In this document: piece after piece, positions 3,686 through 49,035 of the stretch
How positions within the stretch are numbered: position 1 is the first letter of the stretch
How the letters are laid out: every line of letters starts with the position of its first letter
Assembly (NCBI GenBank): GCA_016196625.1
Contig: JACPXH010000017.1
Location: 1 to 52,776 of the forward strand
Length of the DNA stretch: 52,776 nt
DNA from: Candidatus Parcubacteria bacterium
Lineage (GTDB): Bacteria; Patescibacteriota; Minisyncoccia; JACPXH01
Direction of reading: 5' to 3'
Made by a program: the position numbers and the translations under genes
Notes under the pieces: model-generated
What the model saw: only the letters and a program-made list of their open reading frames with translations
What the model was told of the DNA's origin: nothing
The model's database searches: none

Positions 3686-3695
3686 GAGCGCTCAC

Positions 3696-4412: not shown

Positions 4413-4432
4413 ACAGAGAGGAGGTGAGAAAG

Positions 4433-5014
4433 ATGCGGGTGATTCGTAGGGGCATGGAAGAGATCGCCGTGATCGACCCGCGGAAGAAGTATGGTGAGTC
4501 TGGGCAGTACGTGTCTTACGAATGCACCAAGAAGGACTCGAAACTCAACATCGTCAGGATCCTCGCGGCCGCCAGGGCAGAACGCATGGAAATCCGGTAC
4601 TACTACCGGAAGATGACGAGCATGGCCGGTGAGTCAGTGCCGGTCAAGGTCATCATCACCGAGATCCCGCCCGGGCACGTGCAGCCCTTCCACACACACC
4701 TTCTCATCCATGAGGTCACGCATGTGGATGAAGGCGAACTCATCGCCATCGAAAGCGCGGATCTCACCGAGGAGGACTGGGCGCTGATCGTGACACAAGG
4801 CGAGGTCCTTAATCCAGGCGACACCGTGCTCGAGGAGCCCGGAGTGCGGCATACCGTGATGAACCGCGACCCAGAGCGGTACTGTATCATCACGACGGTA
4901 CAAGCTGATCGTACGATCTCGTCCGAGCAGTTCAAGTCGGACTGGGTTCGGGAGGAGCCGCAAGCGAAGGAGGCAGGAGAAGTTCCGGTGGTTCGGGCCC
5001 GAGAAACGGTCTAG
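4433..5014 (+). CDS. Metal-binding cupin domain protein
   Basis: Cupin motif 1 is GHVQPFHTHLLIHEVTHVDEG (G-x5-H-x-H-x4-E-x6-G). Motif 2 is GDTVLEEPGVRHTVMN. Start ATG 4433 is preceded by GAGAGGAGGTGA. The ORF-track start 4379 overlaps the upstream gene. Confidence 0.7.
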   Translation: MRVIRRGMEEIAVIDPRKKYGESGQYVSYECTKKDSKLNIVRILAAARAERMEIRYYYRKMTSMAGESVPVKVIITEIPPGHVQPFHTHLLIHEVTHVDEGELIAIESADLTEEDWALIVTQGEVLNPGDTVLEEPGVRHTVMNRDPERYCIITTVQADRTISSEQFKSDWVREEPQAKEAGEVPVVRARETV

Positions 5015-5105
5015 CGGAGGGAGGTTTTCAGGAGGCGCAGTCCGCGTGATGCGGGCTGCGCTTTTCCCTTTTCGTGGTCTCGCGAATTGAATGATGACGT
5101 GATGA

Positions 5106-5135
5106 TTGACTTTTTGGCTTTCAGATGTCTACAAT
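5106..5135 (+). promoter_or_regulatory. Sigma70-like promoter heading the long + strand gene array (leaderless-type)
   Basis: TTGACT (5106-5111), 18-nt spacer, TACAAT (5130-5135), then 8 nt to ATG 5144. No Shine-Dalgarno sequence fits in between. Confidence 0.5.
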
Positions 5136-5143
5136 AGTTGAGC

Positions 5144-14847: not shown

Positions 14848-14861
14848 CTAGCCAACCATCA

Positions 14862-15803
14862 ATGAAGTTTTCCATCGTCATCCCGGTTTACAACGAAGCA
14901 GAAAACCTCCGGCCGCTCGCTGAGGCGCTCGCGAGAGTACTCAATTCCCTGACATCCGATTGGGAGTGCTTTTTCGTGGATGACGGATCGCTCGATCAAA
15001 GTTACGCGGAGCTGCGCGAGCTCGCGCATAGCGAAGTGCGTTTCAAGGCGGTTCGGTTGCAGCGCAACTACGGTCAGACCGCAGCGATCGCGGCTGGCGT
15101 TGAGCGGGCGCGCGGCGAAATTATCATCCTCATGGACGCAGATCTGCAGAACGATCCGGAAGATATTCCGCGAATGCTGCAAAAACTTGATGAGGGTTTT
15201 GATATTGTTTCTGGCTGGCGGCGTAAGCGCCACGACGAGTTTTTCAAGCGACTCTTGCCGTCGTGGCTTGCGAATGCGCTCATTTCTCGGGTTACGGGCG
15301 TCAAACTTCACGATTATGGCTGTACGCTTAAGGCCTATCGGGCGGAGTTTTTGAAGGGCATTGAGCTTTACGGCGAGATGCACCGGTTCTTGCCGGCCTA
15401 CGGTGCGAGCTTGGGCGCGCGCATCGCCGAAATCGAAGTGCGCCACCATCCGCGCCGGCATGGTGTATCAAAGTACGGATTGGGGCGCACCCTCCTCGTT
15501 CTCGTGGACCTCTTGGTGTTTCGTTTCATCACGCAATATGCCACCAAACCTATGCACTTTTTTGGTCGAGCTGCCACCTGGATGGCGGGGCTTGGCACCG
15601 CAACTGCGCTACTCGCCGTCTACTTCAAGGTGACGGGAGAAAAAGATTTTGTGGAAACGCCCCTGCCGCTCCTTACCGCATTCTTTCTGCTCGTCGGGCT
15701 GCAGTTTCTCCTCATGGGTCTTTTGGCAGAAGTCATCACCCGCACCTGGCACGAGTCGCAAGGAAAGCAGATTTATCGGATCCGGGAGACAATGAATATC
15801 TGA
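14862..15803 (+). CDS. GT2 polyprenyl-phosphate glycosyltransferase (GtrB/ArnC/Dpm1-like)
   Basis: FSIVIPVYNEAENL, FVDDGSLDQS and MDADLQNDP (DxD) motifs. Two C-terminal TM helices (LLVLVDLLVFRFI; LLTAFFLLVGLQFLLMGLLAEVI), typical of lipid-phosphate sugar synthases. Confidence 0.85.
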   Translation: MKFSIVIPVYNEAENLRPLAEALARVLNSLTSDWECFFVDDGSLDQSYAELRELAHSEVRFKAVRLQRNYGQTAAIAAGVERARGEIIILMDADLQNDPEDIPRMLQKLDEGFDIVSGWRRKRHDEFFKRLLPSWLANALISRVTGVKLHDYGCTLKAYRAEFLKGIELYGEMHRFLPAYGASLGARIAEIEVRHHPRRHGVSKYGLGRTLLVLVDLLVFRFITQYATKPMHFFGRAATWMAGLGTATALLAVYFKVTGEKDFVETPLPLLTAFFLLVGLQFLLMGLLAEVITRTWHESQGKQIYRIRETMNI

Positions 15804-24815: not shown

Positions 24816-25559
24816 ATGCAAGATCAAGCTTACGACAAGACCTACGAGCTAGAGAACCGATACTGGTGGCACGTGGGACGCCGTTACGTCTTCCGAAAAG
24901 TGCTCGAGCGGTTCTTTTCGCCCCGGACCGGGGCGAAAATCGTGGACATTGGCTGCGGCACCGGTGGGAACTTCCCCATGCTGGGTGGTTTCGGGACGGT
25001 GCTTGGCCTCGACATTTCCGAGAAGGCTCTCGCCTTCTGTCGCCAGAAGGGGTTCACGAACGTGGCGCTCATGCGGGGAGTATACGATACGGGGCTCGAC
25101 GTCGGGTCTGTGGATTTGGTTACCATGTTTGACGTGCTCGAACATTTTGATGATGATGTGCGGGCGCTTGCGGAGATCAACCGGATCTTGAAGCCGGGTG
25201 GCTATACGCTGATAAGCGTGCCGGCTTTCAAGACGCTCTGGAGTGAATTGGACGAAGCGTTGTACCACCGCCGGCGTTACAAACGACGGGAGCTTGAGAT
25301 GAGGTTGGAAAAAACTGGCTTTGAAATTGTCAAGTCGAGCTACCTGTTCTTTTTCGTTTTCCCACTGGTATTTATGTACCGGGTCGTGGGTCAATTTCAA
25401 GAGCGGCGTTCCTATCCTCAATTTACGTACGTGGAGTTCCCGAAATTCATTGGTGCGTTCCTGGCGTGGCTTTCTAAGGTGGAAGCGAGCATTCTTGGTG
25501 CGGGCGGCCGGTTGCCCGTTGGTTCAACGGTGGTATGCTTCGCGCGCAAGAAGATATGA
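24816..25559 (+). CDS. Class I SAM-dependent methyltransferase (paralog of 48298..49035)
   Basis: From ATG 24816: YELENRYWWHVGRR, IVDIGCGTGGN, FDVLEHFDDD, LKPGGYTLISVP. Hydrophobic C-terminal tail. Confidence 0.75.
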   Translation: MQDQAYDKTYELENRYWWHVGRRYVFRKVLERFFSPRTGAKIVDIGCGTGGNFPMLGGFGTVLGLDISEKALAFCRQKGFTNVALMRGVYDTGLDVGSVDLVTMFDVLEHFDDDVRALAEINRILKPGGYTLISVPAFKTLWSELDEALYHRRRYKRRELEMRLEKTGFEIVKSSYLFFFVFPLVFMYRVVGQFQERRSYPQFTYVEFPKFIGAFLAWLSKVEASILGAGGRLPVGSTVVCFARKKI

Positions 25560-26284
25560 GTAATCGACCAGAGCTTTCGGTGGTGGCATTGTGCTATCGA
25601 GCCGAAGACCTTGCTCGCGAGTTTGTGGCGCAAATTGTCCGTGAGCTCGAGGAAGCAAAAATCGATTACGAACTAGTGTTGGTCGCCAACTACTGGCCCG
25701 GCTCGAACGACCGCACCCCCGAGATTGTGAAAACCATCGCGGCTGCAAACCCGAGGTGCCGCGTGGTGGCAAAAGCCAAAGAGGGAATGATGGGGTGGGA
25801 TATGCGCTCCGGGCTTGATGAGGCCACGGGCGAGCACATTTGTGTCATTGACGGGGACGGTCAGATGCCGTCTTCGGATATCGTCAAAGTCTACCGGTTG
25901 CTGCAGCTTGGGCATTACGATCTCGTGAAAACCTTCCGAGCGCAGCGCTTCGACGGGCCATATCGGCGAGTCATCTCAGCGGTGTACAACTGGTTTTTCA
26001 GGTTGCTATTTAGGCCGAAAGCTAAGTTTCGCGATGTCAACTCGAAACCGAAAGTTATGACTCGCGTTGCCTTCGATCGGATGCGCCTCGAATCGAGCGA
26101 TTGGTTCACCGATGCGGAGATCATGATCGAAGCGCTACGGATAAACCTGAAGATCGGGGAAGTTTCGACAACTTTCTTCAAAAATGAACGGCGGGCATCG
26201 TTCGTGTCACCGTCGGCCATCCTCGAATTCTTGCGCAACCTTCTCTACTACCGGTTCAAGCGCCGACCGTCGGATCATGGGTAG
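25556..26284 (+). CDS. GT2 glycosyltransferase (polyprenyl-phosphate sugar synthase-like, CsbB/GtrB-type core)
   Basis: ATGA overlap with the upstream stop. LSVVALCYRAED, VIDGDGQ (DxD), RVISAVYNWFFRLLF. No C-terminal TM helices are visible. Confidence 0.75.
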   Translation: MSNRPELSVVALCYRAEDLAREFVAQIVRELEEAKIDYELVLVANYWPGSNDRTPEIVKTIAAANPRCRVVAKAKEGMMGWDMRSGLDEATGEHICVIDGDGQMPSSDIVKVYRLLQLGHYDLVKTFRAQRFDGPYRRVISAVYNWFFRLLFRPKAKFRDVNSKPKVMTRVAFDRMRLESSDWFTDAEIMIEALRINLKIGEVSTTFFKNERRASFVSPSAILEFLRNLLYYRFKRRPSDHG

Positions 26285-28676
26285 GGAGGCACGCATCCGG
26301 ATCGCGGTTGCGGCCGCACTGGTGTTACCGGCACTCATCGTTTTCTGGCCGGTTCTTTCGGGCAGAGCAGGATTCGCTGACGGCGACGTGTTCCTCCAGT
26401 ATTACCCGCTCTACGAGGTGTTCCGTGAAGCTCTGCTCGCCGGTCAGTCGTGGCTGTGGGTGTCTGGTGTGATGACTGGTTTCCCGCTTGCCGCGAGCGT
26501 GGTGGGCGGCCTGCTCTCACCCGTGAACCTGGCGCTCTTTCGGTTCTTCGACGTGCTTAACGCGTACCACGTCGTGACAGTTGCAAACATCCTCGCGGCG
26601 GGAGCGGCGACGTACTGGCTTAGCCGTCGGCTCGGGCTTGGTCGAGCTGCGGCTCTCATCGCCGGCGTCACTCTGCCGTGGTCAGTGGCGTATGTTTCGT
26701 TTGCCTCCAATATCACCGTTTCGAACGGCTACTGGCTTTTGCTCGTGCTGTTTTCGGCGATCCTTATTATGCACGAGGCGGAGTCGCGCGGTCGGTTTTT
26801 GCTCGGGTTTGGCGTGGCCACGGTCGCGGCGGCACTAGGGTTTTTCGGCGCACACCCGCAGTGGGTAGCGCAGGGGATCGCGGTCGGGTTCGCGTGGGTA
26901 CTATACCTTTCGTGGCAGCGGCGATCTGTGCGTACCGCTCTCTGGTTTATCGGAGCGGTTGCGCTTGGCGCAGCGCTGGCACTTCCGCAGCTGCTGTTTT
27001 CTGTTCGATACCTGCCGTTCTCGTCGCGCGAAAGCGGATTAAACCTGGCCGAAGCGTTCAGTGGCGGATTCACGCTGCTCGATCCGATCGCGTATATTGT
27101 CCCGGGGCTCAATGTGCCGTATCTCATGGCTAACCCGGGAATCGCGTATGTGGGCGCGCTGCCATTCTTTTTATTCTTGTTTTCGTTTGCAGCGCCAACA
27201 TCTCCACCGTTGCGGTTCTTCCGTTGGGTCTTTGCTCTTACGTTTCTTGCATTGTTCCAATACTCGCCGGTATTTCTAGCGTTGAACGCTATCCCGGGCC
27301 TCAGTTTCTTTCGTGGGCCGAGCCGTTGGCTCTACGTTTCTAACGTAGCACTTGCCGTACTCGCCGCGTACGGGTTCGCATTCCTTGTCTCGCCAGAAGG
27401 CCGCGACCGATTGAGTAGATCGATCCGGTGGATCATGCGGGGAGTAATGGTGTTTGGGATAGCATTTCTCTTCTGGAACGTTGCGAGTATCGCTTTTAAA
27501 CTTGAGGGGCGCACGTACGACGCGCTCACGCGGTACTTCGACACCACGATCTATCCACGCACGACGAAACTTCCCCTTGAGCACTACCACGCCGTGATTC
27601 GCCGCGCTGTCGAGGCGGTCTGGGACGGAACGACGTTTCCTCACGTTGTGTTCTCGGTTTCGTTCCTGTCTCTCATTGCCGCCGCAACGCTCCTAGCGTG
27701 GTGGGTGCGACGGGAACGTTCGCCGCGGGGATTCGGCATGCTTGCGGTTTCGTTGGTCCTCGCAAACCTTATTCCGCTCGCCACAGCAAAACTTTCGTTC
27801 GTGCCCTCGGAGATTATCCGCCAGACGCCGGCCATGGTGCGTAGAGTCCGTGTAGATGCCGGCGCCGAACCCTTCCGCGTCTGGACGTTTTTTCCAGGAG
27901 TAACCGTCTTTACGAAGCTCGATACCCCATTCGGCTACGAACCCGCGGAAAATGTTAGTTTTCAACGCGAGCTCATCGCACCCAATATCGGGCTCTCATA
28001 CGGCGTGGATACGCTCGATAACTACGATAACTTTATGGATCGGCGTAGTTCTCGCGTGCTCGGCCATCTCGGGAGCGATCGGGCAACCTACGGCGAGTTG
28101 CTCGTTCGGGAGAAGCTCTCTCTCGAAGAGAAGCGTGCGCTGTTCCTCGAACGACTTCCCATACTCTCCCGATTCAATGTGCGGTACATCGTAAGCGCCT
28201 TCCCCCTAGAACACCCTCAACTCCGCGCAGTCAGCCGCATGCGCGCCACGCGTCATGAGATCGAACTCATGCTCTACGAAAACTCGGCAGTTTGGCCGCG
28301 CTACTACCTCGCGGGGCGCGTTCGGACTGTTCCGCCTGCGGATGAAAAGATAGAATGGGAACAATTTCTCCGGCACGTCGCGGCAGATCCCGATGGCGAT
28401 CTCATCGCCTGCGAGCAGTGTTCTGCGGTTCAGGTGGGGAAGCGTGAGGCAGTACCGGTTGTTTCATCGAGCGGTTCCACCTATACTTTTGTGGTGGAGA
28501 CGGATGCGCCGCGCTGGTTCGTGTTTGGGCAAAATATGCTCCCTGGCTGGCGTGTTACGATTGACGGCAAGTTAGTCCCCACATACCGCGCAAACTTTCT
28601 AAATCAGGCTGTTGTTGTGCCCGTTGGCCGGCACGAAATAATGTTCGAGTTTAATCCATTTCGTTTTGAACTTTGA
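26277..28676 (+). CDS. YfhO-like GT-C membrane glycosyltransferase
   Basis: 799 aa from ATG 26277, overlapping the GT2 stop by 8 nt. N-terminal FADGDVFLQYYPLYEVFREALLAGQSWLWVSGVMTGFPL. Many TM segments. C-terminal beta-rich end GWRVTIDGKLVPTYRANFLNQAVVVPVGRHEIMFEF, as in YfhO-type proteins. Confidence 0.6.
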   Translation: MGREARIRIAVAAALVLPALIVFWPVLSGRAGFADGDVFLQYYPLYEVFREALLAGQSWLWVSGVMTGFPLAASVVGGLLSPVNLALFRFFDVLNAYHVVTVANILAAGAATYWLSRRLGLGRAAALIAGVTLPWSVAYVSFASNITVSNGYWLLLVLFSAILIMHEAESRGRFLLGFGVATVAAALGFFGAHPQWVAQGIAVGFAWVLYLSWQRRSVRTALWFIGAVALGAALALPQLLFSVRYLPFSSRESGLNLAEAFSGGFTLLDPIAYIVPGLNVPYLMANPGIAYVGALPFFLFLFSFAAPTSPPLRFFRWVFALTFLALFQYSPVFLALNAIPGLSFFRGPSRWLYVSNVALAVLAAYGFAFLVSPEGRDRLSRSIRWIMRGVMVFGIAFLFWNVASIAFKLEGRTYDALTRYFDTTIYPRTTKLPLEHYHAVIRRAVEAVWDGTTFPHVVFSVSFLSLIAAATLLAWWVRRERSPRGFGMLAVSLVLANLIPLATAKLSFVPSEIIRQTPAMVRRVRVDAGAEPFRVWTFFPGVTVFTKLDTPFGYEPAENVSFQRELIAPNIGLSYGVDTLDNYDNFMDRRSSRVLGHLGSDRATYGELLVREKLSLEEKRALFLERLPILSRFNVRYIVSAFPLEHPQLRAVSRMRATRHEIELMLYENSAVWPRYYLAGRVRTVPPADEKIEWEQFLRHVAADPDGDLIACEQCSAVQVGKREAVPVVSSSGSTYTFVVETDAPRWFVFGQNMLPGWRVTIDGKLVPTYRANFLNQAVVVPVGRHEIMFEFNPFRFEL

Positions 28677-28829: not shown

Positions 28830-30908
28830 ATGAACCGTATCCGGTTATTCTTTGTTGACGTGTTCTCCCAGCCGCGCTTCGGTTGGTTCCTTGCCGTGAG
28901 TGCGGTCGCGTATTTCGTGGGCGTTCGTCTCGGGCAGGACGTCGTGTACCGAATGTCGCTCCGGTCATTCCCGGATCTCTTCGCAAGCCACGGCAACCTC
29001 ATTCAGCCAGAGCCCCTGGAAGCGCCGCTGTACCTGGCGGGCTATCTTCTTATTCCCCTTGGTGCCCTCGGTCTTTGGTTTATCGCTAGCCAGTGGCGCC
29101 GGCTGATCGCGGTGGTTGCGACCATTGGGGGAGTCGTCATGTTGTGGTTCGTATATCCTGCACTGTGGCATGTGGTGGGGCGCGTTGGTGAGATGGGTGT
29201 CATGGCGGTCCAGTACGCTGCGACGCACGACCTCGTCCAGGTACTCTGGCTCGCAACAACGAAACGTATCGTGGTTACGGGTGCTATACTCGGCATCTCG
29301 ACGGTCGCGTTTGTTTGGCTCTTTGCCTCTGGGCGTCGGCCGTTCCTGGCGTGGATCCGGCAGCACCGCGACGCGCTCTCGTCTCGCTGGGCGCAGACTC
29401 TGTTTCTACTCGCCGTCGCCATCGTCGTCTTCCACCCGAATTTTCCCTTTGATCCGCACCATTACAATTATTTTCTCGGGCCGGTGAATGACATTCTTCA
29501 CGGCAAGCCGATTCTTTATGAAACGTACGCCCTCTACGGGCTCCTCGATGTGTATGCGCTTGCGGCGATCTTCCGATGGCTCTTGCCGTTGAGCTACCCG
29601 GCGGCCGTCCTCGTGGTGACAGGGCTCTTCGCCGCATTCTTCGCGGGGATGTATTTCTTTATTCGCCGTTGGCTCGGCTCGCACCTGATGGCGGTCATCG
29701 GCGTCTCGGCGCTCGTGGCGACACTCTATCTATTCCAAACAAGCCCGACGCGTTCATCGCTGTTTTTTCCGGCGATGAGCCCGCTCCGTTACGGTTGGTA
29801 CCTCCCAATTCTTTTCCTCATTCATCGTTACGGCGTCACGCGGAGCGCCAAAGCATGGTGGGGGGCGATTGTGCTCGCGGCGATCGCGCTCTTTTGGACG
29901 ATTGACGCTGGCGCATACGTTGCCGCTGCGACGCTCATCACGCTTGGCATCGCGGAGGTTTTGCAGAGAGCGCCGGCACGCGGCGCTGTTCTCCGGACGG
30001 CGGCAGCGGTTGCGTTCCGGCTTGGGGCAGTATTCGTTCTTGTTGTCGGCGCGGTCGTAGCGACCATCACCGCGGCGAACGCGGCCGTCTTCGGCGCACT
30101 GCCCGACTGGAGCCTTTTTACAAAGGAGTTCCTAGATTTTGTAGGCGGCGTGGTGATGAACCCTCTGCCGGCGGTGGGGGTGTTCGTGTTCCTCGTACTT
30201 GGATACGTCGTCGCGTGGCTTGCGGTCGCCGACGAGGCGCGCCGCGGCCGAAATCCTGATCTCGCGCTCGTCTTCCTCCTTGCGTATGGCGCCTTCCAGT
30301 TCCTCTACTATATCGGCAACTCGTCCTGGCAGACTCTCTATCTTGTCACGGGGCCGTTCTTCCTCATCTTACTTTATGTGTTTTACCGTGCTACCCTGGC
30401 AGACCCCTTCGGTCCGCCGTGGGCCGAGCGGTTGCTTGTCGCGTCAGGATACGCCGTGGCGGTCTTCGCCGCGCTACTTCTTGTGGCAAAGCTCCCCGTT
30501 GAGTTTGCGGGTCGCAACTATGCCCAGATTAGCGAGAGCTTTCAGAGTTACGGCGTCCGGGAACTTTCGGTGGCAGATGAGTATACCGATGGGCGAGAGA
30601 TTCGCCGGGCGTATCCGAATTTTGAGCGGCTAGCTGTCATTTCGACCCGCGACACTCCACTCCTTATTGCGGCCGGCCGGCCGAATGCCTTCGCGACGTA
30701 CTACCTGCGCGATGTGCTTTTTAAATCGCAGGTACGCGGGTTTATCGCCCAGGCACGCCGCGACCTGACGCCGGTTATCTTTGTCGGTACGGGGAGCCGG
30801 CGAAACGACCAAGTTGAACTTTTCCTCAAAGGCGTGCGCGAACGCTACGCGCGTGCGCAATCCCTACGGACGGTTGACATGTACGTTCTGCGAGACGGAT
30901 CTTTCTGA
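28830..30908 (+). CDS. Large polytopic membrane protein, unassigned family (paralog 1 of 3)
   Basis: 692 aa from ATG 28830, chosen by alignment with paralog 2. Conserved blocks shared with 32059..34011 and 34100..35872: VLWLATTKR, HPNFPFDPHHYNYFLGPVNDILHGKPILYETYALYGLLDVY, LPVEFAGRNY, and C-terminal NDQVE...LRTVDMYVLR. Confidence 0.7.
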   Translation: MNRIRLFFVDVFSQPRFGWFLAVSAVAYFVGVRLGQDVVYRMSLRSFPDLFASHGNLIQPEPLEAPLYLAGYLLIPLGALGLWFIASQWRRLIAVVATIGGVVMLWFVYPALWHVVGRVGEMGVMAVQYAATHDLVQVLWLATTKRIVVTGAILGISTVAFVWLFASGRRPFLAWIRQHRDALSSRWAQTLFLLAVAIVVFHPNFPFDPHHYNYFLGPVNDILHGKPILYETYALYGLLDVYALAAIFRWLLPLSYPAAVLVVTGLFAAFFAGMYFFIRRWLGSHLMAVIGVSALVATLYLFQTSPTRSSLFFPAMSPLRYGWYLPILFLIHRYGVTRSAKAWWGAIVLAAIALFWTIDAGAYVAAATLITLGIAEVLQRAPARGAVLRTAAAVAFRLGAVFVLVVGAVVATITAANAAVFGALPDWSLFTKEFLDFVGGVVMNPLPAVGVFVFLVLGYVVAWLAVADEARRGRNPDLALVFLLAYGAFQFLYYIGNSSWQTLYLVTGPFFLILLYVFYRATLADPFGPPWAERLLVASGYAVAVFAALLLVAKLPVEFAGRNYAQISESFQSYGVRELSVADEYTDGREIRRAYPNFERLAVISTRDTPLLIAAGRPNAFATYYLRDVLFKSQVRGFIAQARRDLTPVIFVGTGSRRNDQVELFLKGVRERYARAQSLRTVDMYVLRDGSF

Positions 30909-30972
30909 GCCGCAAGCCCAAGGTTGTAACCGTTGAGATCGCAAAGCGTAGTAGTCGTGGCGATAAAAATCC

Positions 30973-31596
30973 TCATGGCCGAACGATTTTTATGTACAAA
31001 AAATGCCAAAGTTTTATAAACTTATTCGGACTAGGAAAAATTCTCATTTCGGTAACTGGATAATTTTTAAAAACTTTTTCTGTTTGTTCTCGGGTCCGGA
31101 TATGTTTGCCCTGGTCAAACTTGGTCAAAAGCTTGGTGGTCCACCGGTCATCAGGCCTGTGGATGATATCGAAGAAGTGCAGTGCCCCGCCGGGTTTCAG
31201 AGCCACTAAAAGTTTGTCGAGGATACTCTTAAATTCTTCATCGGAGAGATGGTGACTGGTGCTGGCAAATAGCGCGTGATCAAAAAAATTACGCTTGTAC
31301 TCTTGTCGTAAAACATCAACGCATGCAAAGTGGACATGAGGATAATTTTTGAATTTCTGTTTGGCTGCCGTTATCGCTTCGCCGTCAATGTCCACGCCGT
31401 AATATTCAAAATTCAAAAATCCCGGAGTGGTGTTGCCGTAGGAACAACCAAAGTCGAGCAAGGTTCCGGATTTTCCCTCAAACACCGATGTATACAGGGC
31501 TACCTTGTACTGGTTTGCCCCGAGGAAATTGTGTACAAAATTGAGGACAAAAGGGATATTAATGATCTTCTTCATGATGCGATTTTTCAGGGCCAT
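30973..31596 (-). CDS. Class I SAM-dependent methyltransferase (low-G+C insert)
   Basis: 207 aa. LLDFGCSYGNTTP (motif I), YYGVDIDGEA, LKPGGALHFFD. Markedly AT-rich codon usage. Confidence 0.75.
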   Translation of the reverse strand: MALKNRIMKKIINIPFVLNFVHNFLGANQYKVALYTSVFEGKSGTLLDFGCSYGNTTPGFLNFEYYGVDIDGEAITAAKQKFKNYPHVHFACVDVLRQEYKRNFFDHALFASTSHHLSDEEFKSILDKLLVALKPGGALHFFDIIHRPDDRWTTKLLTKFDQGKHIRTREQTEKVFKNYPVTEMRIFPSPNKFIKLWHFLYIKIVRP

Positions 31597-31602
31597 CTGG
31601 AA

Positions 31603-31631
31603 ATTATACCCTAGTTAATCGCATTATGCAA
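31603..31631 (-). promoter_or_regulatory. Sigma70-like promoter giving a leaderless methyltransferase mRNA
   Basis: Minus strand: TTGCAT (31631-31626), 17-nt spacer, consensus TATAAT (31608-31603), then 6 nt (TTCCAG) to ATG at 31596. No room for an RBS. Confidence 0.5.
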
Positions 31632-32058
31632 ACGCGGCAAGCCAACACGGTAAAGAAAATGTCTTGAAACCAACCAAACTGTTACTTAACGTAACTGCCC
31701 CAAGGGCGTCGTTGCCAGAAAACGGCTAATCGTGATCTTCCCCGGCCATCAGATGTATGAGGCCGCGGATTTTTGTGGCCGCTATCTCGAAGCCCTCCCA
31801 CCCATTTCTTCGCTCGGCGCAAGTTCCCGAACGCGCACTTCCGCTGCCCACATACCGGGGACCAAAGCGATTTTTCACGGAGGATTGGGGTAGTTATTCC
31901 AGCCAGGTAATGAAGCGATGTTTTTAGCATTGACAGGTAGAGTTCTTGGAGTACGCTGGGAATATTCTCAAGAGTTGCCTGCCATGATCAAATCGAGAGT
32001 GGAAACCTCTAGCGGCCGTCCGGCTCAGGCAACCTGTGCGACACTTTTGCATGCAGCA

Positions 32059-34011
32059 ATGAAAAACTTTTTGGACTATATAAAAAATCTTGATTTCAGA
32101 AAATATCTGGTTTTTTTGATTCCTGCCGTTTTGATTTATTTCTTCGCCTCCAATGTTTTCCAGAGCCGCCTGACGATTACCAACTTTGATATGCTTGATG
32201 CGTACCCCGGGTACCCGATTCTGCCTGAACCGTATGAGATTCCTTTGTATTTATTAAGTTTTATCGCGGTTCCATTGTTGACGCTGGTTTTTTACCGCTT
32301 GTGGAGTTATCCAGCTATACGGTTTGCTGTTGGCCTCTTGGTCGGCGCGGGTGCAGTGGCCCTGTTGGTAAAGATTGCCCAGATGCACTGGCCGAGTGTC
32401 GCTACAGCTTTCGACTATTTGGCGACGCGCCGCACCAGCCACGTCCTATGGCTGGTGACCACGAAACGCCTGTACGCGGTGAGGCTGGCAATGGCCACCA
32501 GCGTGGCGGCCTTGATCTTTTTTTATTGGAAGCCGTTGCAATTCCGTTGGCTGACCAGCCGCGAAAATCCTCGGCTGAAAACATTACTCTTCCTGCTGCT
32601 GGTGATGCTCGGGGTCGTTGTGTTTGATCCGAATTTTACTTCGCAGGAGGGTTTCACGAATTTCGTGCTGAGCCCGGCGCATGAAATGCTGAACGGCAAA
32701 CCCCTGCTGTATGATACTACCTCGGTGTATGGCGTGTTGAGCGTCTACCTGACTGCGTTTTTGATCAAATTTTTTCTTCCGCTGTCCTATAAATCCATGT
32801 CCTTGATTATCATGGTAGCGTATTTTGGTTTTTACTTCTTGCTGTATAAAGCGCTGAAAATTTGGACGCAATCGTCTGTCTTTTCGCTGTTGGGCACATG
32901 GCTTGCGGTCGTGGTCGGGTATTTTTTGCTCGTGTCTCCCTATATAGCAGCCACGAGTTATATCGGTCAAACCGCATACCGGCAAGGTTTTTACCTAATT
33001 ATATTTTATTTTTTGGTGCGCTGGTGGCAAACACATTCCCGAGCGACTCGGGAGCTGATCTTTCTTTTTTCTGCCCTTGGTTTGTTTTGGAATATCGATA
33101 CCGGTGTGTACATTGCGATTGCCACTTTTGCCTCGCTTGCCTATGTGCTGCTCACGGAAAGATCCACTCGTTCGGCACGCTCACCCGACAGTACTTTTCA
33201 GAAATTTAAAAAAGTTTTTTCCCTCGGCGTGCATCAATTCCTTTATATTTTTGGGGTATTCGCCGTTATTTCTCTGGTCAACTATTTGATGTATCATTCG
33301 TGGCCCAACTGGCTGTTGGAGATTGCCGACATTTCCACGTTTAACACCGGGTACGGTAAAATTCTCATGCCTCAATTTGGCATTTTTGAAATCTACCTGT
33401 TTGTTTACTTGGGGTTTCTGGCGTGGATCGTCTGGAAATTCGTGAGAAAAGAGGTCGTGCCGTTGCCCGTGGTATTCCTGACGACCTATGGAATTTTTTC
33501 CTTTATTTATTATGTCGGCAACTCTGCCTGGAGTTATCTCAACTTTATTTCTATTCCCATGCTCATGTTGCTGCTTTACTTCTTTTATCAATTTTTCCGC
33601 GAACAATCTGATTTTCTTCCGCGGCGTTTGATGGCAGCCGGATTGGGCGCATTGCTGTTTTTTGCTTCGATCGTAACGATGGTCAAAATCCCGGTGGTGT
33701 TTGCGAATCGGAACTATGCCGACATCAGCTTGACCAGTATTGATGCCGCAGACGAGCCGTTGTACCAGGACGCAATCTATTTACGGGGACACTTTCCCGA
33801 CACGCGCTTGGCGGTTTTGCACGAAACCGACGGCAAGCTCCTCGTGATGGCTGATAAAATCAACTATTTTTACCTGCAGTCCGGACACCAGCGGCTGTAT
33901 AGCTTATATGATAATTTTCTCATGATTTATCGGCGCCATACCCAAGGTATTAGCCTATTTTGTTGTCATTCGTTTTTTCCAGGATTGGCTGTATCGGAGT
34001 CTCGGCGTTGA
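32059..34011 (+). CDS. Large polytopic membrane protein, unassigned family (paralog 2; divergent, C-terminally truncated)
   Basis: 650 aa from ATG 32059; alternative starts at 31984 and 31918. Aligns with paralogs 1 and 3 but has DPNFTSQEGFTNFVLSPAHEMLNGKPLLYDT in place of the DPHHY(N/H)YFLG block. Lacks the terminal NDQVE...TVD(V/M)Y module. Confidence 0.65.
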   Translation: MKNFLDYIKNLDFRKYLVFLIPAVLIYFFASNVFQSRLTITNFDMLDAYPGYPILPEPYEIPLYLLSFIAVPLLTLVFYRLWSYPAIRFAVGLLVGAGAVALLVKIAQMHWPSVATAFDYLATRRTSHVLWLVTTKRLYAVRLAMATSVAALIFFYWKPLQFRWLTSRENPRLKTLLFLLLVMLGVVVFDPNFTSQEGFTNFVLSPAHEMLNGKPLLYDTTSVYGVLSVYLTAFLIKFFLPLSYKSMSLIIMVAYFGFYFLLYKALKIWTQSSVFSLLGTWLAVVVGYFLLVSPYIAATSYIGQTAYRQGFYLIIFYFLVRWWQTHSRATRELIFLFSALGLFWNIDTGVYIAIATFASLAYVLLTERSTRSARSPDSTFQKFKKVFSLGVHQFLYIFGVFAVISLVNYLMYHSWPNWLLEIADISTFNTGYGKILMPQFGIFEIYLFVYLGFLAWIVWKFVRKEVVPLPVVFLTTYGIFSFIYYVGNSAWSYLNFISIPMLMLLLYFFYQFFREQSDFLPRRLMAAGLGALLFFASIVTMVKIPVVFANRNYADISLTSIDAADEPLYQDAIYLRGHFPDTRLAVLHETDGKLLVMADKINYFYLQSGHQRLYSLYDNFLMIYRRHTQGISLFCCHSFFPGLAVSESRR

Positions 34012-34099
34012 CCAGCGGCCCGGCGGGCTGTTTGAGAGCTTCGGACCGTTCTTCCGCGGCGAGCCGTATGAAATTTTTCTTTACCTGCTCGGTTATTTC
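33908..34099 (+). other. Interrupted 5' segment of paralog 3 (ATG 33908, in-frame TGA 33923-33925, then 58 homologous codons without a start codon)
   Basis: In the frame of 34100..35872: ATG ATA ATT TTC TCA TGA, then FIGAIPKVLAYFVVIRFFQDWLYRSL...EPYEIFLYLLGYFVVP. This aligns with the N-terminal helix/loop of paralogs 1 and 2. It overlaps the tail of 32059..34011 in another frame. Confidence 0.5.
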
Positions 34100-35872
34100 G
34101 TGGTTCCGATGGCGGCATACGGTTTACTCCCCCTGATGAGAAAACTGCGGCGGCATTTTTTTATTCCTTTGGGTGCGGCGGCTGCGCTCGTTGCGGCGTC
34201 GTGGCTTTCGCAGAAGCAATATTTTACGCGGGTGGCAGACCTTGTGTCTGCGCCAGGCATCGCGCACCCGCTGTCACTGATTTCCACCCAGCGCATGGTT
34301 GTGGCCCACCTGGCACTGATTCTAGCGGTCGTGGCTGCAGCAGTTTATTACTGTTTCGACCGGAGCGATTTGGGTGTGCTCTACCGCGGGAGCGTCGAAC
34401 GGTTTTTCAATAAATTTTGGCCGTTCGGACTCATACTTTTAGCGTTTTTACTGTACCACCCTGGGTTACCCCTCGACCCGCATCATTATCATTATTTTCT
34501 GGGTGCGGTAAATGATATTTATCAGGGGAAGGGATTGCTGTATGAAACCTCCCACCTCTACGGGCTTTTTGACGTGTATTTTTTGGCCCTGCTGTTCAAA
34601 GTCATTCCGTTTTCTTACCCGATGTTTGCGGCGGTGATCACCGCGGCTTATTTTTTGTTTTTTTGTGGCATTTTTGTTTTCCTGCGTCGATGGCTAAACT
34701 CCTATACACTCTCGACTTTGGGGGTGAGTATTATCGTCCCGATGCTTTATTTCATTCGCACCAGCGATACTCAATCAGCCTTGTTCTTGCCCGCCTTGAG
34801 TCCATTGCGGTGGGGGTTGTACCTGCCCGTCCTGTTTTCTGTTTTGGCGTACGCCAGAAGTGGTAAGAGGAAATTTGCACATTTGGCCATGGTAATTTCT
34901 GCTGCTGCCGTTTTTTGGAATTTTGACACAGGCATATTTTTGAGCTTGGCGACCTTGGCAACTTTCATGTACCAGGAGCTTAATCCCGGCTGGAATATCC
35001 GGGAGGCCGGCAAGATTCTACTCCATTTTTTCCTTTATGGCCTATCGCTTTTTGCCCTCACTAGTCTCATCAACCGGGGGGTCTATGGATCCTGGCCGCA
35101 CTGGTCACTGTTTTTGCGCGAGAGCAAAGACTTCGTCTTGGGTGCCGCGATGCACCCGCTCCCGCCGTTAGGCTTGTATCAGATCATTTTCTATACTTAT
35201 CTGCTCTCCTTGGCCGTGATTTTTTATAAGCTTGTCGGTCGAAAGACCGTTGATCTGCCTTTGGTTTTTCTTTCCGTCTACGGAGTTTTTTCTATGGTTC
35301 ATTACATTGGCGAATCCACCGGGCAGATTTTTTCCGCCGTGACCGCGCCTTTTGTTTTGATCATTTTGTACGCTGTAGATAACTTTTGGAAAGAAAATTA
35401 TCAGCCTGCGTATGAGCGATTGGTGGCCACGGGTTTGGCCTGCTTGGTTTTTATGGCAGCGTTTTTAGCAATTTTTAAATTGCCGGTAGAATTCAGCACC
35501 CGGCACTATACCCAGGCCGGAGAAAGTCTGTTCAACGTAAGGGCCGAAGAGCTTGATACGTATTATGATGCGAAATATTTACAGGCACATTATCAGCAAA
35601 AGCGCTTGCCGATAATTTCCCTCAACGACACAAAACTTTTGACATACTCAAAAAAAGCTAATTATTTTGATTTCTACTATATTTTTACGATCTATTTTCG
35701 TTCCCAGATGCAGAAATATATTGACCAGGCCAGAAGCGAAAAACCGGCTATGCTCATAGTCGGTAGGAATAACTATCGAAACGACCAGGTGGAGTACTTC
35801 TCTGCTGGCGTGCAGGACTTATATGCTGTCAGTGAGTCGCTGAAAACCGTGGATGTTTATACCTTGCGTTAG
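34100..35872 (+). CDS. Large polytopic membrane protein, unassigned family (paralog 3; N-terminus possibly disrupted)
   Basis: 590 aa from GTG 34100, the first usable start. HPGLPLDPHHYHYFLGAVNDIYQGKGLLYETSHLYGLFDVY, LPVEFSTRHY, NDQVEYFSAGVQDLYAVSESLKTVDVYTLR match paralog 1 at about 45-50% identity in the segments I aligned by eye. Confidence 0.7.
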   Translation: MVPMAAYGLLPLMRKLRRHFFIPLGAAAALVAASWLSQKQYFTRVADLVSAPGIAHPLSLISTQRMVVAHLALILAVVAAAVYYCFDRSDLGVLYRGSVERFFNKFWPFGLILLAFLLYHPGLPLDPHHYHYFLGAVNDIYQGKGLLYETSHLYGLFDVYFLALLFKVIPFSYPMFAAVITAAYFLFFCGIFVFLRRWLNSYTLSTLGVSIIVPMLYFIRTSDTQSALFLPALSPLRWGLYLPVLFSVLAYARSGKRKFAHLAMVISAAAVFWNFDTGIFLSLATLATFMYQELNPGWNIREAGKILLHFFLYGLSLFALTSLINRGVYGSWPHWSLFLRESKDFVLGAAMHPLPPLGLYQIIFYTYLLSLAVIFYKLVGRKTVDLPLVFLSVYGVFSMVHYIGESTGQIFSAVTAPFVLIILYAVDNFWKENYQPAYERLVATGLACLVFMAAFLAIFKLPVEFSTRHYTQAGESLFNVRAEELDTYYDAKYLQAHYQQKRLPIISLNDTKLLTYSKKANYFDFYYIFTIYFRSQMQKYIDQARSEKPAMLIVGRNNYRNDQVEYFSAGVQDLYAVSESLKTVDVYTLR

Positions 35873-36039
35873 CGGTTTTTGCCGGCTGATGGCATCCAGA
35901 CGGTGTATCACATAAGGACAGACGCCGAGGCTAGATTCTCGGATGGGATGAGGTTAATGGTTGCGCGCCGGCGTTTCACCTCGGCCGCTACCAATTTCGC
36001 TACCTTAGGATCAGTTTTGTTAATGTGGCGAAGTTGCAT

Positions 36040-45812: not shown

Positions 45813-46961
45813 ATGTTTGAACGGTTGCAGCTTTTTATCTTGACTCTACTCGCGTATCTGCTGCTGCCGTTTTCGCGCGTGCGCAGCCGACCCACGGCCA
45901 AGGGGCGGCCTAGTATCTTAATTGTGCAAACCGGTAAGATCGGGGATCTTGTGTGCACCACCCCCGTCTTCCGGGCAATCAAGAAGACTTGGCCCGAAGC
46001 GGATCTCGGCGTTGCGGTAACGAGTCTCGTAGCTCCCTTACTTGCGGGCAACCCCTACGTTGATGTGGTGTTTGCGCTGAACGGCAAGCCCGGGCTCGCG
46101 GGCAAATTCAGGCTCATCCGCGAGATCCGGCGGCACGGGTACCACTGGGTGCTCGTCCTCACCCCGGCTGCGATCGGCGTCATCATCGGCGTGCTTGCAG
46201 GCATCCCAAATCGGGCGCTCACCGTGATCCCCCAGTTGTCGCGTCACACCCGCTCGGCGCTCATTTTTGCGAACCGTTATGTGCCTTATGAGTTGCGCGC
46301 GGCTGGGGCAGAGCACTACTGTCGGATGGTAAACCTTGTGGGTTCGGTGGACTGTCGTGAGCCGCGGGAGCTCTTTCCCGATGCGGCGGCGCGCGCAAAA
46401 GCCGAGCAGTTTCTCGCCGCGCACGGGATCGGAGCGGATGTGTTCGTCGTTGGCATCTCCGTGGCGGCGGGGAAGTTTAACAAGGAATGGCCAGCCGAAC
46501 GCTTTGGGGCATTGGCAGACCGGTTCATCGAACAGTACGGCGCGAGAATCGTATGGGTTGGATCCAGCGGCGACGCAAGCACCATTGCCGAGGCCGAAGC
46601 GGCCATGCGGCGGCGCGATCGGGCGGTCTCATCCGCCGGCGCCTTCACGCTCGCCGAGCTCTCAGCACTGCTTGGGCGCCTTAAGCTGTTTGTTAGCGTA
46701 GACACGGGTCCTCTCTACATGGCCGATGCGATGGGGGTGCCGGTCGTGGACATTGCGGGGCCGGCTGACGTTCGCTCGCAGGCGCCGGCCGGTCGAGCGC
46801 TCGTGATTCAAGCAGACGGCATCCCGCCACTGCTCACGCTTATGGCTGCACCCGACAGTTCGGAGCGCGACCCGGCCATAATAGCCATTACCGTGGATCA
46901 GGTTTGGCGTGAGATTGAGGCTTTCATCAGTCGTGAGGGGCTTGCCTCCGTGCTTCCATGA
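45813..46961 (+). CDS. GT9-family glycosyltransferase (heptosyltransferase-like)
   Basis: From ATG 45813 (45786 is an alternative): SILIVQTGKIGDLVCTTPVFRAIKKTWPEADLGV, FVVGISVAAGKFNKEWPAERF, LFVSVDTGPLYMADAMGVPVV: characteristic WaaC/WaaF-type blocks. Confidence 0.75.
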   Translation: MFERLQLFILTLLAYLLLPFSRVRSRPTAKGRPSILIVQTGKIGDLVCTTPVFRAIKKTWPEADLGVAVTSLVAPLLAGNPYVDVVFALNGKPGLAGKFRLIREIRRHGYHWVLVLTPAAIGVIIGVLAGIPNRALTVIPQLSRHTRSALIFANRYVPYELRAAGAEHYCRMVNLVGSVDCREPRELFPDAAARAKAEQFLAAHGIGADVFVVGISVAAGKFNKEWPAERFGALADRFIEQYGARIVWVGSSGDASTIAEAEAAMRRRDRAVSSAGAFTLAELSALLGRLKLFVSVDTGPLYMADAMGVPVVDIAGPADVRSQAPAGRALVIQADGIPPLLTLMAAPDSSERDPAIIAITVDQVWREIEAFISREGLASVLP

Positions 46962-48295
46962 CGCATTTGCTTGGCCGCACGCGTGAACGCGCGCAGGAGT
47001 TTTTTCATCATCGGTTCGTGCGCGACACCGCCACACTGCAGGCGGGGACGTTCGTCTCGCTCGGCCTTGGGTTTATTTCTTCGGTTGTCTTCGCGCGGGT
47101 GTTGCAACTGGAGGGGTTCGGCGAGTATGCGCTCATCTCTGCGATCGCGGCGGTGGCTTCGATCCCCCTTGACCTCGGCGTGGGGTACGGGACACTCACA
47201 CTCATGGCCGCGGCGCACGCGCGCGGGGATCGCGCTGAGGTGCGGGACATCATCACGTTTTTCGTCAAGGCAACTGCTTTTATTACCCTTGGGCTTGGCC
47301 TACCGGTCATGATGGGGACTTGGGTGTTTACGGCGACTATCTACCACAGTTCTCGCCTTGGACTCCTTGTTGTTCCACTACTCGCCGTGCAGTTACTGAT
47401 GGCTTTTTTTATTCTCATTACGATTGTCTACCAGGTTGAGCGCCGGTTGAAAGCGCTCGTGCTCATAGAGAATAGTAACCGGGTGCTCAGCATGGTGTTT
47501 CCGGTCACTCTCGTGTTTTTGGGGCAGGGGTTGCCGGGGATCGTCGGCGGACAACTTGCCGCAACGATTATTTCGCTCTTCGCAGCAACGTTTCTCTATC
47601 GCGGCGCTCGCGCATCGGATCCGTTGCTCCCCAGTGCTCGCGAAATTTGTTCACACTTCGGCCGGATGCAACTCGGTCGCTACTTCCGTTTCAGTTTTAA
47701 AATCGCCTTTGACAAGAACGTGGCGAACCTTTTTGCCACGCTGCCAGTCGTGTTCTTGGGGCGTTTGGCGCCGGTGTACCTCGCCGGGTACTACAAGCTT
47801 GCGTTTAACTACCTGCAGGTTCCTTTGCGGCTGACCGGGTCGGTGTCGCGGCTTTTGCAGATTCAGCTGCCGGAGTCGTACGTTACGGGTGCGGATACGC
47901 TCATTAGACATTTCCGGAAGGTAACTATCTATTCGGGGCTGTTGTCGTTTTGCCTGGTGGCGGGTGCGCTCATCTTGGCGGGGCCGATCATCGCGTTGGT
48001 CTATGGGACGGCTTATGGCGCAGCCGCGAAGGTTGTCTATGTACTTGCCCCATTTGCAATCGTTTCTGGTTTTTCCGTGGGCATGGGTCCAGTTTTCCGG
48101 GCCATTGATCGAGTGGGGTCGGTGATTGCCATTAACGTGGCCACTCTTGTTGTTGTGACCCCCATCGGCTATTGGCTCGTGCGCACGTTCCATGTCTACG
48201 GGGCGGCAGCCCTCTTGGGGCTCTATACCGCTCTGGCAACCGGCGCTGCCTTTGCGGTGGTCGGTTACCACTTTAAGCGCCTCACCCGCGCCTGA
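46958..48295 (+). CDS. Wzx-like oligo/polysaccharide flippase (MOP/PST superfamily)
   Basis: 445 aa, about 12-14 hydrophobic segments. N-terminal FVRDTATLQAGTFVSLGLGFISSVVFARVL. ATGA overlap upstream. Confidence 0.65.
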   Translation: MTHLLGRTRERAQEFFHHRFVRDTATLQAGTFVSLGLGFISSVVFARVLQLEGFGEYALISAIAAVASIPLDLGVGYGTLTLMAAAHARGDRAEVRDIITFFVKATAFITLGLGLPVMMGTWVFTATIYHSSRLGLLVVPLLAVQLLMAFFILITIVYQVERRLKALVLIENSNRVLSMVFPVTLVFLGQGLPGIVGGQLAATIISLFAATFLYRGARASDPLLPSAREICSHFGRMQLGRYFRFSFKIAFDKNVANLFATLPVVFLGRLAPVYLAGYYKLAFNYLQVPLRLTGSVSRLLQIQLPESYVTGADTLIRHFRKVTIYSGLLSFCLVAGALILAGPIIALVYGTAYGAAAKVVYVLAPFAIVSGFSVGMGPVFRAIDRVGSVIAINVATLVVVTPIGYWLVRTFHVYGAAALLGLYTALATGAAFAVVGYHFKRLTRA

Positions 48296-48297
48296 TT

Positions 48298-49035
48298 ATG
48301 CACGTGAGCGAGTACCATAAAATTGCGGCGTTCCAAGCCAAGCACTGGTGGTTCTTCGGCCGAAAACTGTTTTTGCGGCAGTTTCTTATGCAGTACGTTC
48401 CCGGGCGCAACGCGGAAATCTTGGACGTCGGCTGCGGCACCGGAGAGGCCATGCTGTTTGCCGCCCGGCTCGGCTACCATCGCGTCCTCGGCCTCGATAA
48501 TGCCGAGGTGGCCATCTCTTTCTGCCGCCAGCAGGGTCTGTTAGCTGTCGAGCGCTGCGATGCGGCACGGCTGTCCTACGCGGCCGCTTCCTTCGATGCG
48601 GTTTTGTGTCTTGACGTGCTCGAGCATGTCCGAGACGATGCGGCAGTGCTTGCAGAGATTTGGCGGGTGCTCCGGCCGGGCGGGTGTGCGTTCATCACGG
48701 TCCCGGCGTTCCGGTTCCTGTGGTCGCGCCACGACACGGTGCTCCAGCATTTCCGGCGCTACGAGATGGCCGATCTCCTACGGTTTGCCCGCGCGCAACC
48801 CTGGCGGGTTCGCGAACATTCGTACTTCTTTTTCTTTATTTTCCCGCTCGTCGTCGCGTACCGGTGGCTGAAGTGCTTCGATCACCGGCCGCGCACGTCC
48901 GATCTCGACTTTGTGCCCGAACCGTTCAACGCGGCGCTCAAGGCTCTTTCGATCATCGAGATGTGGCTCGTGCGGATATTCGGTCGGCTCCCATTCGGCA
49001 CATCGCTCTACATCGTGCTCGAGAAACTCCCATGA
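48298..49035 (+). CDS. Class I SAM-dependent methyltransferase (paralog of 24816..25559)
   Basis: FQAKHWWFFGRK, ILDVGCGTGEA, LDVLEHVRDD, LRPGGCAFITVP. Same block order and hydrophobic tail as 24816..25559. Confidence 0.75.
   Translation: MHVSEYHKIAAFQAKHWWFFGRKLFLRQFLMQYVPGRNAEILDVGCGTGEAMLFAARLGYHRVLGLDNAEVAISFCRQQGLLAVERCDAARLSYAAASFDAVLCLDVLEHVRDDAAVLAEIWRVLRPGGCAFITVPAFRFLWSRHDTVLQHFRRYEMADLLRFARAQPWRVREHSYFFFFIFPLVVAYRWLKCFDHRPRTSDLDFVPEPFNAALKALSIIEMWLVRIFGRLPFGTSLYIVLEKLP

Follow-up and report, generated by a model that had tools for sequence, protein, structure and literature searches.

A new, unnamed protein family with a predicted GT-C glycosyltransferase fold in a Patescibacteria glycan locus

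What do three related genes for large membrane proteins contribute to a bacterial glycan locus when they match no named protein family? The genes lie on contig JACPXH010000017.1 of a Candidatus Parcubacteria bacterium, which we analysed over its whole 52,776 nucleotides (hereafter the window); the entire 52.8-kb contig is a glycan-biosynthesis locus. Almost nothing is known of the surface chemistry of the Patescibacteria (also known as the candidate phyla radiation, CPR), ultra-small and uncultivated bacteria whose way of life requires contact with host cells. We conclude that the three proteins belong to a new and unnamed sequence family within a known fold class, the GT-C glycosyltransferases, and that they are not a new kind of system.

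All three genes are on the forward strand. Copy 1 (P1, 28830..30908) is an open reading frame (ORF) of 692 amino acids by translation, has the native G+C content of 0.60 and starts in agreement with the N-termini of its homologs. Copy 2 (P2, 32059..34011) has 650 residues as assembled and 671 when intact. Copy 3 (P3, 33953..35872) has 663 residues when intact; as assembled it lacks a start codon and half of its first transmembrane helix. An initial annotation, made from the sequence without database searches, had recognized three homologous polytopic ORFs at these positions, and BLASTP bears this out: P1 and P3 share 42% identity over 501 residues (E 5e-115), P1 and P2 31% over 613 residues (E 1e-65), and P2 and P3 32% (E 4e-66). 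The length it gave for all three, about 650–690 residues, does not describe the ORFs as assembled (692, 650 and 590 residues). The annotation had also described shared motif blocks, with a His-His block replaced in copy 2, and the alignment agrees. P1 carries FHPNFPFDPHHY (29430-29465) and P3 carries YHPGLPLDPHHY (34454-34489), both on the forward strand; P2 has FDPNFTSQEGFT (32623..32658, forward), which aligns with the FHPNFPxDPHHY block of the clade that holds P1 and P3, and the identical motif is found in the ortholog from a related genome, L016. Of the blocks said to be common to all three, VLWLxTTKR occurs in copies 1 and 2, but copy 3 reads PLSLISTQR instead.

The copies are old paralogs or xenologs and not the product of a recent duplication, because copies 1 and 3 are each closer to relatives in other genomes (48–49% identity) than to each other and copy 2 belongs to a different clade. 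The nearest relative of P1 is the protein P0006 (48–50% identity). The nearest relatives of P3 are P0186 (87%), P0187 (70%) and the Doudnabacteria protein P0020 (48%).

We could assign none of these proteins to a family by sequence, as the initial annotation had stated. With P1, P2 and P3 as queries, neither Pfam nor NCBIfam gave a match up to E = 1. Sixty family members searched against Pfam (E≤0.01) matched no known membrane-enzyme family; the matches obtained were stray accessory domains in single members (CBM96, Laminin_G_3). Searches of PDB sequences with two family profiles (A1 and A4) returned no significant match. The YfhO profile (PF09586) matches neither the three paralogs nor the 60 members. 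The PMT/PMT_2/ArnT profiles (PF02366, PF13231; GT39, GT83) do not match either, and similarity to the structures 5ezm and 9i5k is at the fold level only. For the STT3/PglB/AglB enzymes (PF02516, GT66) there is neither a PF02516 match nor a PDB sequence match, and no WWDxG motif was seen in the sequences of the three paralogs. No Pfam match was found to the Wzy/O-antigen ligase family (PF04932) or to the SEDS proteins (GT-C_B), and no WaaL, RodA or Wzy structure is among the 50 Foldseek matches listed. The family belongs to none of these sequence families, because every profile test failed. PMT, YfhO, ArnT and Wzy had been set aside from the motifs by the initial annotation, and the Pfam scans and the hhalign comparisons given below concur.

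The family is rare and unannotated. An exhaustive HMMER search of 1.84 billion representative sequences found 467 clusters (at 50% identity) with E≤1e-3, 199 with E≤1e-10 and 30 with E≤1e-30. All named members are called 'hypothetical protein' and come from Parcubacteria, Doudnabacteria, Uhrbacteria and other Patescibacteria metagenome-assembled genomes (MAGs), mostly from groundwater; cluster look-ups of distant members returned 'hypothetical protein' only, and one for copies 2 and 3 gave nothing further. The genome that contains the window (818 kb, 25 contigs, 94% complete) has just these three copies, and the family is present in 2 of 300 other, evenly sampled Patescibacteria genomes, about 1% of those sampled. 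In the literature on GT-C enzymes in Patescibacteria, on CPR and YfhO, and on GT-C classification, we found no description of it. A contig titled 'archaeon isolate ARS54' (NYZO01000094.1, our locus L004) carries two adjacent members, of clades C and A (defined below), that nest among Patescibacteria in the tree, a placement explained either by mislabelling or contamination of the MAG or by gene transfer.

Structure prediction gives the family a fold. AlphaFold2 modelled P1 with a pLDDT of 75 and a pTM of 0.73 from 12 sequences, and with a pLDDT of 92.4 and a pTM of 0.93 from 139 sequences. When the 139-sequence model was compared with the PDB by Foldseek, the top 21 matches were all GT-C-fold proteins (probability 1.00, E 2.3e-5 to 4.1e-3), and the top 13 matches of the first, 12-sequence model were likewise all of GT-C fold. 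The best match is human STT3A (8pn9_A, E 2.3e-5). ArnT (5ezm, E 8.1e-5) has TM-scores of 0.38/0.46, the top target-normalised score of the high-confidence search, and PglB, AglB, yeast oligosaccharyltransferase (OST), DPY19, PIG-U (7wld_U, 8imx_U) and Pmt4 follow at E 2.0e-4 to 4.1e-3 and probability 1.00. ALG9 and EmbA stand lower in the list. AftA (8if8_B) was the second match of the first model (TM-scores 0.42/0.46), and EmbA and EmbB were matched by both models at probability 0.87–0.99. Unrelated membrane proteins such as CLC and the pyrophosphatases reached TM-scores of about 0.1 and probabilities <0.45. These predictions are consistent with a GT-C glycosyltransferase fold, although a distant one (TM-score <0.5), and the resemblance to GT-C transferases that the initial annotation had drawn from size and topology holds at the fold level in both models.

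Where would the active side of such an enzyme lie? Hydropathy and the helices of the AlphaFold2 model give 15 transmembrane helices. Across the 139 sequences the density of Lys and Arg alternates, at 0.16–0.31 per residue in the loops assigned to the cytoplasm and 0–0.12 in the others, and this fits a topology with the N-terminus inside, the C-terminus outside and a C-terminal alpha/beta domain on the outer side. In P1 that soluble domain (30489..30908, forward strand; about 130 residues past the last transmembrane helix) is predicted to be extracytoplasmic from the modelled secondary structure and topology parity. The other segments predicted outside are a loop at residues 201–255 with two juxtamembrane helices, 304–323, 355–359, 422–450 and 495–500. 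All of the conserved blocks sit in predicted outward loops. These include the loop with the DPHHY motif, the topology of which the initial annotation had proposed to predict; the Lys and Arg density of the 139 sequences places it outward, within 201–255.

The residues conserved across the 139 family members (numbered as in P1) are concentrated in these loops. Tyr and Gly at 236 and 237 are each present in 139/139, G225 in 137/139 and R320 in 134/139; position 359 is acidic in 135/139, 226 is basic in 132/139 and 221 is acidic in 123/139, and E64 is acidic in 115 of the 126 members aligned there. By residue class E64, D221, D359, K226 and R320 are thus 83–97% conserved, all of them predicted outside. 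In P1, E64 falls in the PEPLEAPLY block (29007..29033, forward strand) that closes the first outward loop, and D221, G225, K226, Y236 and G237 fall in the outward loop after the fifth transmembrane helix (29430..29540, forward strand), where the His-His block FHPNFPFDPHHY is followed by NDILHGKPILYETYALYG. The motifs of the family are PEPxE, (H)PNFPxDxHHY, GKxLLYxT..YG, WNxDxG and YYxGxSxWQ. A GT-C active site would look like this, with conserved acidic and basic residues on the outer side, and from conservation and topology roles for individual residues may be suggested.

Maximum-likelihood analysis of 41 members gave a tree with four clades. Clade A (17 rows, support 99) includes P1 and P3 and is marked by FHPNFPxDxHHY, FQTSPTRS and YYxGESTWQ; within the tree P1 joins P0006 and P0007, and P3 joins Doudnabacteria proteins. 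Clade B (12 rows, support 98) includes P2. Clade C has EHHY or EGHY at the His-His site, and clade D has LDHY and has lost the PEPxE block. The initial annotation had suggested that the DPHHY motif is plausibly a catalytic or metal site, and as a claim about the key site this stands only in part. The His pair is invariant within clade A (17/17 sequences). Across the family, though, the first His (H210) is found in 59/139 (42%) and the second (H211) in 90/139 (65%), with Asp in 26 and Asn in 13, so that 93% have His, Asp or Asn at the second position; moreover, there are more conserved outward residues, namely E64, N220-D221, G225-K226, Y236-G237, R320 and D359. Because of these counts we regard the second His, by sequence comparison, as a moderately conserved polar position of ligand type and the first as clade-specific.

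Directly 5' of P1 the gene order is short-chain dehydrogenase/reductase, methyltransferase, a small family 2 glycosyltransferase (GT2) and a YfhO-like protein. The GT2 (25535..26284, forward strand; Pfam Glycos_transf_2) is a candidate polyprenyl-phosphate-sugar synthase: its best NCBIfam matches are PgfS, AglJ and ArnC, all under cut-off, and it has weak PDB sequence matches to ArnC, GtrB and DPMS. The YfhO-like polytopic protein (26184..28676, forward strand; 830 residues) lies directly upstream of copy 1. PF09586 matches only its last 40 residues, below the gathering score, and there is a weak match to PgfM2. It is itself a divergent, poorly annotated membrane protein, with counterparts 31–50% identical in the related loci L001, L006, L009, L010 and L011. 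The order methyltransferase, GT2, YfhO-like protein and then family genes recurs in L001/L008, L009 and L011, with the GT2 72–85% and the YfhO-like protein 36–50% identical. In L006 and L010 a methyltransferase and a YfhO-like protein (38% and 31% identical) precede the family genes, and no orthologue of the GT2 was detected in either of these two loci. There are three family copies in the window and in L001, two in L009, L010 and L011, and one in L006.

It is this synteny, two or three family genes after a conserved module of methyltransferase, PgfS/ArnC-like GT2 and YfhO-like protein, that makes surface glycosylation dependent on a polyprenyl-phosphate sugar the likeliest function. We consider it probable that the family members are polyprenyl-phosphate-sugar-dependent GT-C transferases that act at the outer face of the membrane on a surface glycan or protein. 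The basis for this is homology, fold similarity, predicted outward conserved residues, synteny and selection.

For the donor, the acceptor, the flipping step and the individual residues we infer the following scheme. The neighbouring small GT2 would attach a sugar to polyprenyl phosphate at the inner face, and the lipid-linked sugar would be flipped across the membrane. On the outer face each family member would then transfer the sugar to a surface glycan or glycoprotein, and the paralogs would differ in the position or acceptor that they serve. The outward loops with the near-universal residues would form the active site: E64, D221 and D359 would be its acidic residues, acting as base or as ligands for a metal; K226 and R320 would bind phosphate; and Y236-G237 would also lie within it. 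His211 of the DPHHY motif may be an extra ligand that depends on the clade, distinct from the core catalytic residues. The C-terminal domain may aid acceptor binding.

Several observations weigh against this assignment. The GT2 scores far under every curated NCBIfam cut-off, which leaves its lipid-phosphate acceptor a candidate, and no GtrA-type flippase was recognised beside the family genes. The TM-scores to solved GT-C enzymes are only 0.25–0.46, with E only 1e-5 to 1e-3; the GT-C relationship is distant, and the evidence for it is predicted structure. There is no bridge at the sequence level, since hhalign gave a probability of 0.4% between the family and the neighbouring YfhO-like pair and of 4.3% between the 139-sequence family profile and a 10-sequence alignment of the PMT_2 family of the window. 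Likewise, the placing of E64, D221, D359, K226 and R320 in an active site is drawn from conservation and topology.

Might the paralogs work in pairs? In the window and in L001, L004, L007, L009, L010, L011, L015 and L016, a clade-A gene is found together with one or more genes from clades B, C or D, and these frequently lie next to it or overlap it; L006 has a clade-A copy only, within 22 kb. Copies 2 and 3, moreover, overlap by ATGA and travel as one cassette, the first gene of which is a SAM-dependent methyltransferase (30973..31596, reverse strand; Pfam methyltransferase domains, G+C 0.43). The cassette of methyltransferase, copy 2 and copy 3 (30973-35872) has a G+C content of 0.43–0.48 against 0.57–0.60 in the flanking genes. 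It recurs in L015 (450-5308), from a related strain, and in L016 (3807-8660), where the flanks are different and NusA and RNase HII are nearby, and the ATGA overlap is kept. The low G+C and the recurrence, in L016 with different flanks, indicate that the cassette was acquired horizontally and as a unit. That most loci with enough flank pair clade A with another clade, and that copies 2 and 3 are coupled in this way, hints that an enzyme of clade A might combine with a partner from clade B, C or D into an obligate hetero-oligomeric machine, specific to Patescibacteria, for glycan assembly at the outer face. Such a machine could be likened to EmbA-EmbB or Pmt1-Pmt2, with the His-less clade-B subunit as a partner that handles the acceptor or is metal-independent. 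By analogy this is conceivable, and we think it unlikely.

A second possibility is that these proteins move oligosaccharides en bloc. They would resemble OSTs or ligases, transferring a Wzx-flipped polyprenyl-diphosphate oligosaccharide to protein or cell wall and not single sugars carried on a monophosphate. The best Foldseek matches, STT3, PglB and AglB, are indeed OSTs; the architecture is alike, a polytopic domain followed by an outward C-terminal soluble domain; and the contig encodes both a Wzx-type flippase (46958-48295) and a Wzy_C/TPR protein (189-2495). However, Pfam gives no STT3 match, the C-terminal domain shows no WWDxG-type motif, and the monophosphate-donor enzymes ArnT, DPY19 and Pmt4 score equally well. 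Of the five independent related loci with flanks, three have the small PgfS/ArnC-like GT2, and not Wzx, as the conserved neighbour, and two or three copies per locus suit stepwise addition of sugars better than a single ligation. We judge en-bloc transfer quite unlikely.

Copy 2 raises a question of its own, because it lacks the His pair and, in this assembly, its proper C-terminus. Is it a catalytically dead pseudo-enzyme or partner, or a decaying pseudogene? In favour of such a fate are the absence of both His residues and of the FQTSPTRS loop, the out-of-frame end of the assembled ORF, and a dN/dS of 0.29 (measured against L015, dS ~0.28), somewhat above that of P3 (0.22) and of the methyltransferase (0.15). 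Even so, a ratio of 0.29 is that of purifying selection, and the same substitutions define a conserved subclade in several genomes. This subclade, B1, comprises five distinct sequences: P2, P0036, P0031, P0032 and a protein of L007. None has a His at either site; EGFT, ENYI, ENYF, EGNS and EGNT are found instead, and LLxxDPYIT replaces FQTSPTRS. The subclade nevertheless retains E64, (H/N/S)220-(E/D)221, G225-K/R226, Y236-G237, R320, W356, D/E359, P425-W427 and YYxGxSAW. P2 itself retains all of the near-universal residues (E64, E221, G225-K226, Y236-G237, R320, W356 and D359 among those kept), with two conservative changes, N220 to His and D221 to Glu, and its substitution is found unchanged in L016. 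The initial annotation had called the DPHHY motif 'lost' in copy 2. The trait belongs instead to a clade, and since B1 shares the substitutions, the core residues are kept and dN/dS is 0.29, copy 2 is a selected gene in a conserved orthogroup and the absence of the His pair is a clade character, not a private loss. On clade conservation and dN/dS we reject a private pseudogene, although a partner role with no catalysis, as in EmbA-EmbB-like pairs, would fit these observations too.

The truncation of copy 2, in turn, does not appear to be a property of the organism. Comparison with orthologs shows that homology to copy 2 stops at ...RRHTQGI, ending at 33952, and homology to copy 3 begins at AYFVV..., starting at 33953. 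At this junction in the assembled contig (33952..33953) 208 nucleotides are missing; they would complete copy 2 at its 3' end, supply the ATGA overlap and add the first ~23 codons of copy 3. As a result the last 19 codons and the stop of the assembled copy 2 are out-of-frame copy 3 sequence. Upstream of the GTG at 34100 the copy 3 frame stays open as far as 33926, through a stretch that includes EPYEIFLYLLGY and has no canonical start. The GTG was the start chosen in the initial annotation, and it falls 3' of the EPYEIFLYLLGY block (34058-34084) that the annotation itself counted among the shared ones. An alternative start for copy 3, or a frameshift that joins copies 2 and 3, is rejected because both homology breakpoints coincide at 33952|33953, and also by the presence of the 208 nucleotides elsewhere.

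Related and same-strain DNA both carry the missing segment. L015, a Logan contig from another run with 88–90% DNA identity to the window, has the same end of P1, then the reverse-strand methyltransferase, copy 2 and copy 3. Its copies are intact, at 671 and 663 residues, and overlap by ATGA. Positions 31939-33952 of the window align with 1185-3174 of L015, and 33955-35875 with 3385-5311, so that the window has 208 nucleotides fewer exactly at 33952|33953. Logan contigs from groundwater runs with the same strain (X2, X3) match the window at 100% identity and diverge from it exactly at 33952|33953, on both sides. Their loose ends match the L015 segment and are in frame, reading ...TQGI-IEQIEKGKPE on the copy 2 side and YYYSLAGATL-AYFVV on the copy 3 side. 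No Logan contig was found that spans the junction of the window itself, in same-strain data of low depth (3–6x) and in contigs that drop rare variants. Because the same-strain contigs and L015 carry the 208 nucleotides and none spans the junction, the truncations of copies 2 and 3 are likely, though not proven, to come from an error of assembly (at most from a minority variant) rather than from decay of the genes; the apparent decay lies most likely in the deposited assembly. We therefore regard a dead or decaying copy 2 as rather improbable. Most likely it is an active enzyme with another donor, acceptor or linkage, or else the obligate partner of the translationally coupled clade-A enzyme.

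The weakest alternative, that the family has a GT-C-like fold with no glycosyltransferase activity and is a scaffold or substrate-presenting subunit (as PIG-U is in GPI transamidase), a transporter of lipid-linked intermediates or another membrane enzyme, can point to non-catalytic PIG-U (7wld_U, 8imx_U) among the matches, to the lack of a sequence-level link to any catalytic GT-C family and to the lack of an identified flippase for the predicted lipid-linked sugar, but near-invariant outward E64, D221, D359, K226 and R320 are typical of a catalytic site for a phosphate-linked donor, and in three of the five independent related loci with flanks the family genes are tightly linked to a GT2 that resembles lipid-sugar synthases, so that we judge it very unlikely.

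The rest of the window carries many GT4 genes, sugar-nucleotide tailoring enzymes and two B12/radical-SAM enzymes. It also contains a second donor-synthase/GT-C module (12056-15803), composed of a PMT_2 protein of GT-C fold (12056-13696), a GT4 (13693-14847) and a full-length ArnC/PgfS-like GT2 (14862-15803) that matches the ArnC model at E 2.7e-62, under cut-off. Two relatives, P0193 (942 residues) and P0194 (923 residues), are fusions of the PMT_2 protein with a GT4 domain. A 659-residue ORF (48660-50639) has no Pfam or NCBIfam match. L009 and L011 have homologs of it, 35–40% identical, a few kb from their family genes, and it may be a further unassigned component of the same glycan system.

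If transferases dependent on polyprenyl-phosphate sugars are what these genes encode, the family would be one more unannotated part of the extracytoplasmic glycosylation machinery of Patescibacteria. Naming the fold yields candidate residues, E64, D221, K226, R320, D359 and H210/H211, and the His-His and His-less clades would offer a natural contrast for dependence on donor or metal. Were one member characterised, it would presumably found a new CAZy glycosyltransferase family.

How, then, does the family compare with known systems? Like the three-component systems CsbB/GtcA/YfhO, GtrB/GtrA/Gtr*, ArnC/ArnT and PgfS/PgfM1/PgfM2, it links a small GT2, for which the best names are PgfS, AglJ and ArnC, to polytopic proteins of GT-C fold. 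The predicted active side is outside in both cases, and a YfhO-like protein shares the operon with the family. Unlike the proteins of these systems, however, the family has no detectable sequence similarity to YfhO, to PMT_2/ArnT or to any Pfam GT-C family; no GtrA-type flippase was recognised at the locus; and for a single GT2 there are two or three family members, which come from distinct clades.

ArnT uses a polyprenyl-monophosphate sugar donor and has outward acidic and basic residues and a metal site that contains His. With ArnT (GT83, 5ezm) and PMT/PMT_2 the family is alike at the fold level (TM-score 0.46, E 8.1e-5), whereas its 15 predicted transmembrane helices, C-terminal alpha/beta domain and motifs are its own. 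STT3, PglB and AglB (GT66, PF02516) give the best Foldseek E values (2.3e-5 to 4e-4) and share the plan of a polytopic protein with an outward C-terminal domain. By contrast, the family has no PF02516 match or WWDxG, its C-terminal domain is far smaller (~130 residues), and its gene context points to a monophosphate-sugar donor.

EmbC, EmbA and EmbB are tandem paralogs, GT-C enzymes of roughly 15 transmembrane helices with outward soluble domains and a polyprenyl-phosphate sugar donor. The family differs from the mycobacterial Emb and AftA proteins (GT53, GT85) in being smaller (~670–690 against ~1,100 residues), in having none of the Emb periplasmic carbohydrate-binding domains and in showing no sequence similarity to Emb or AftA. 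Yet its members too are tandem paralogs of ~15 transmembrane helices and GT-C fold, and the arrangement of their genes resembles embCAB.

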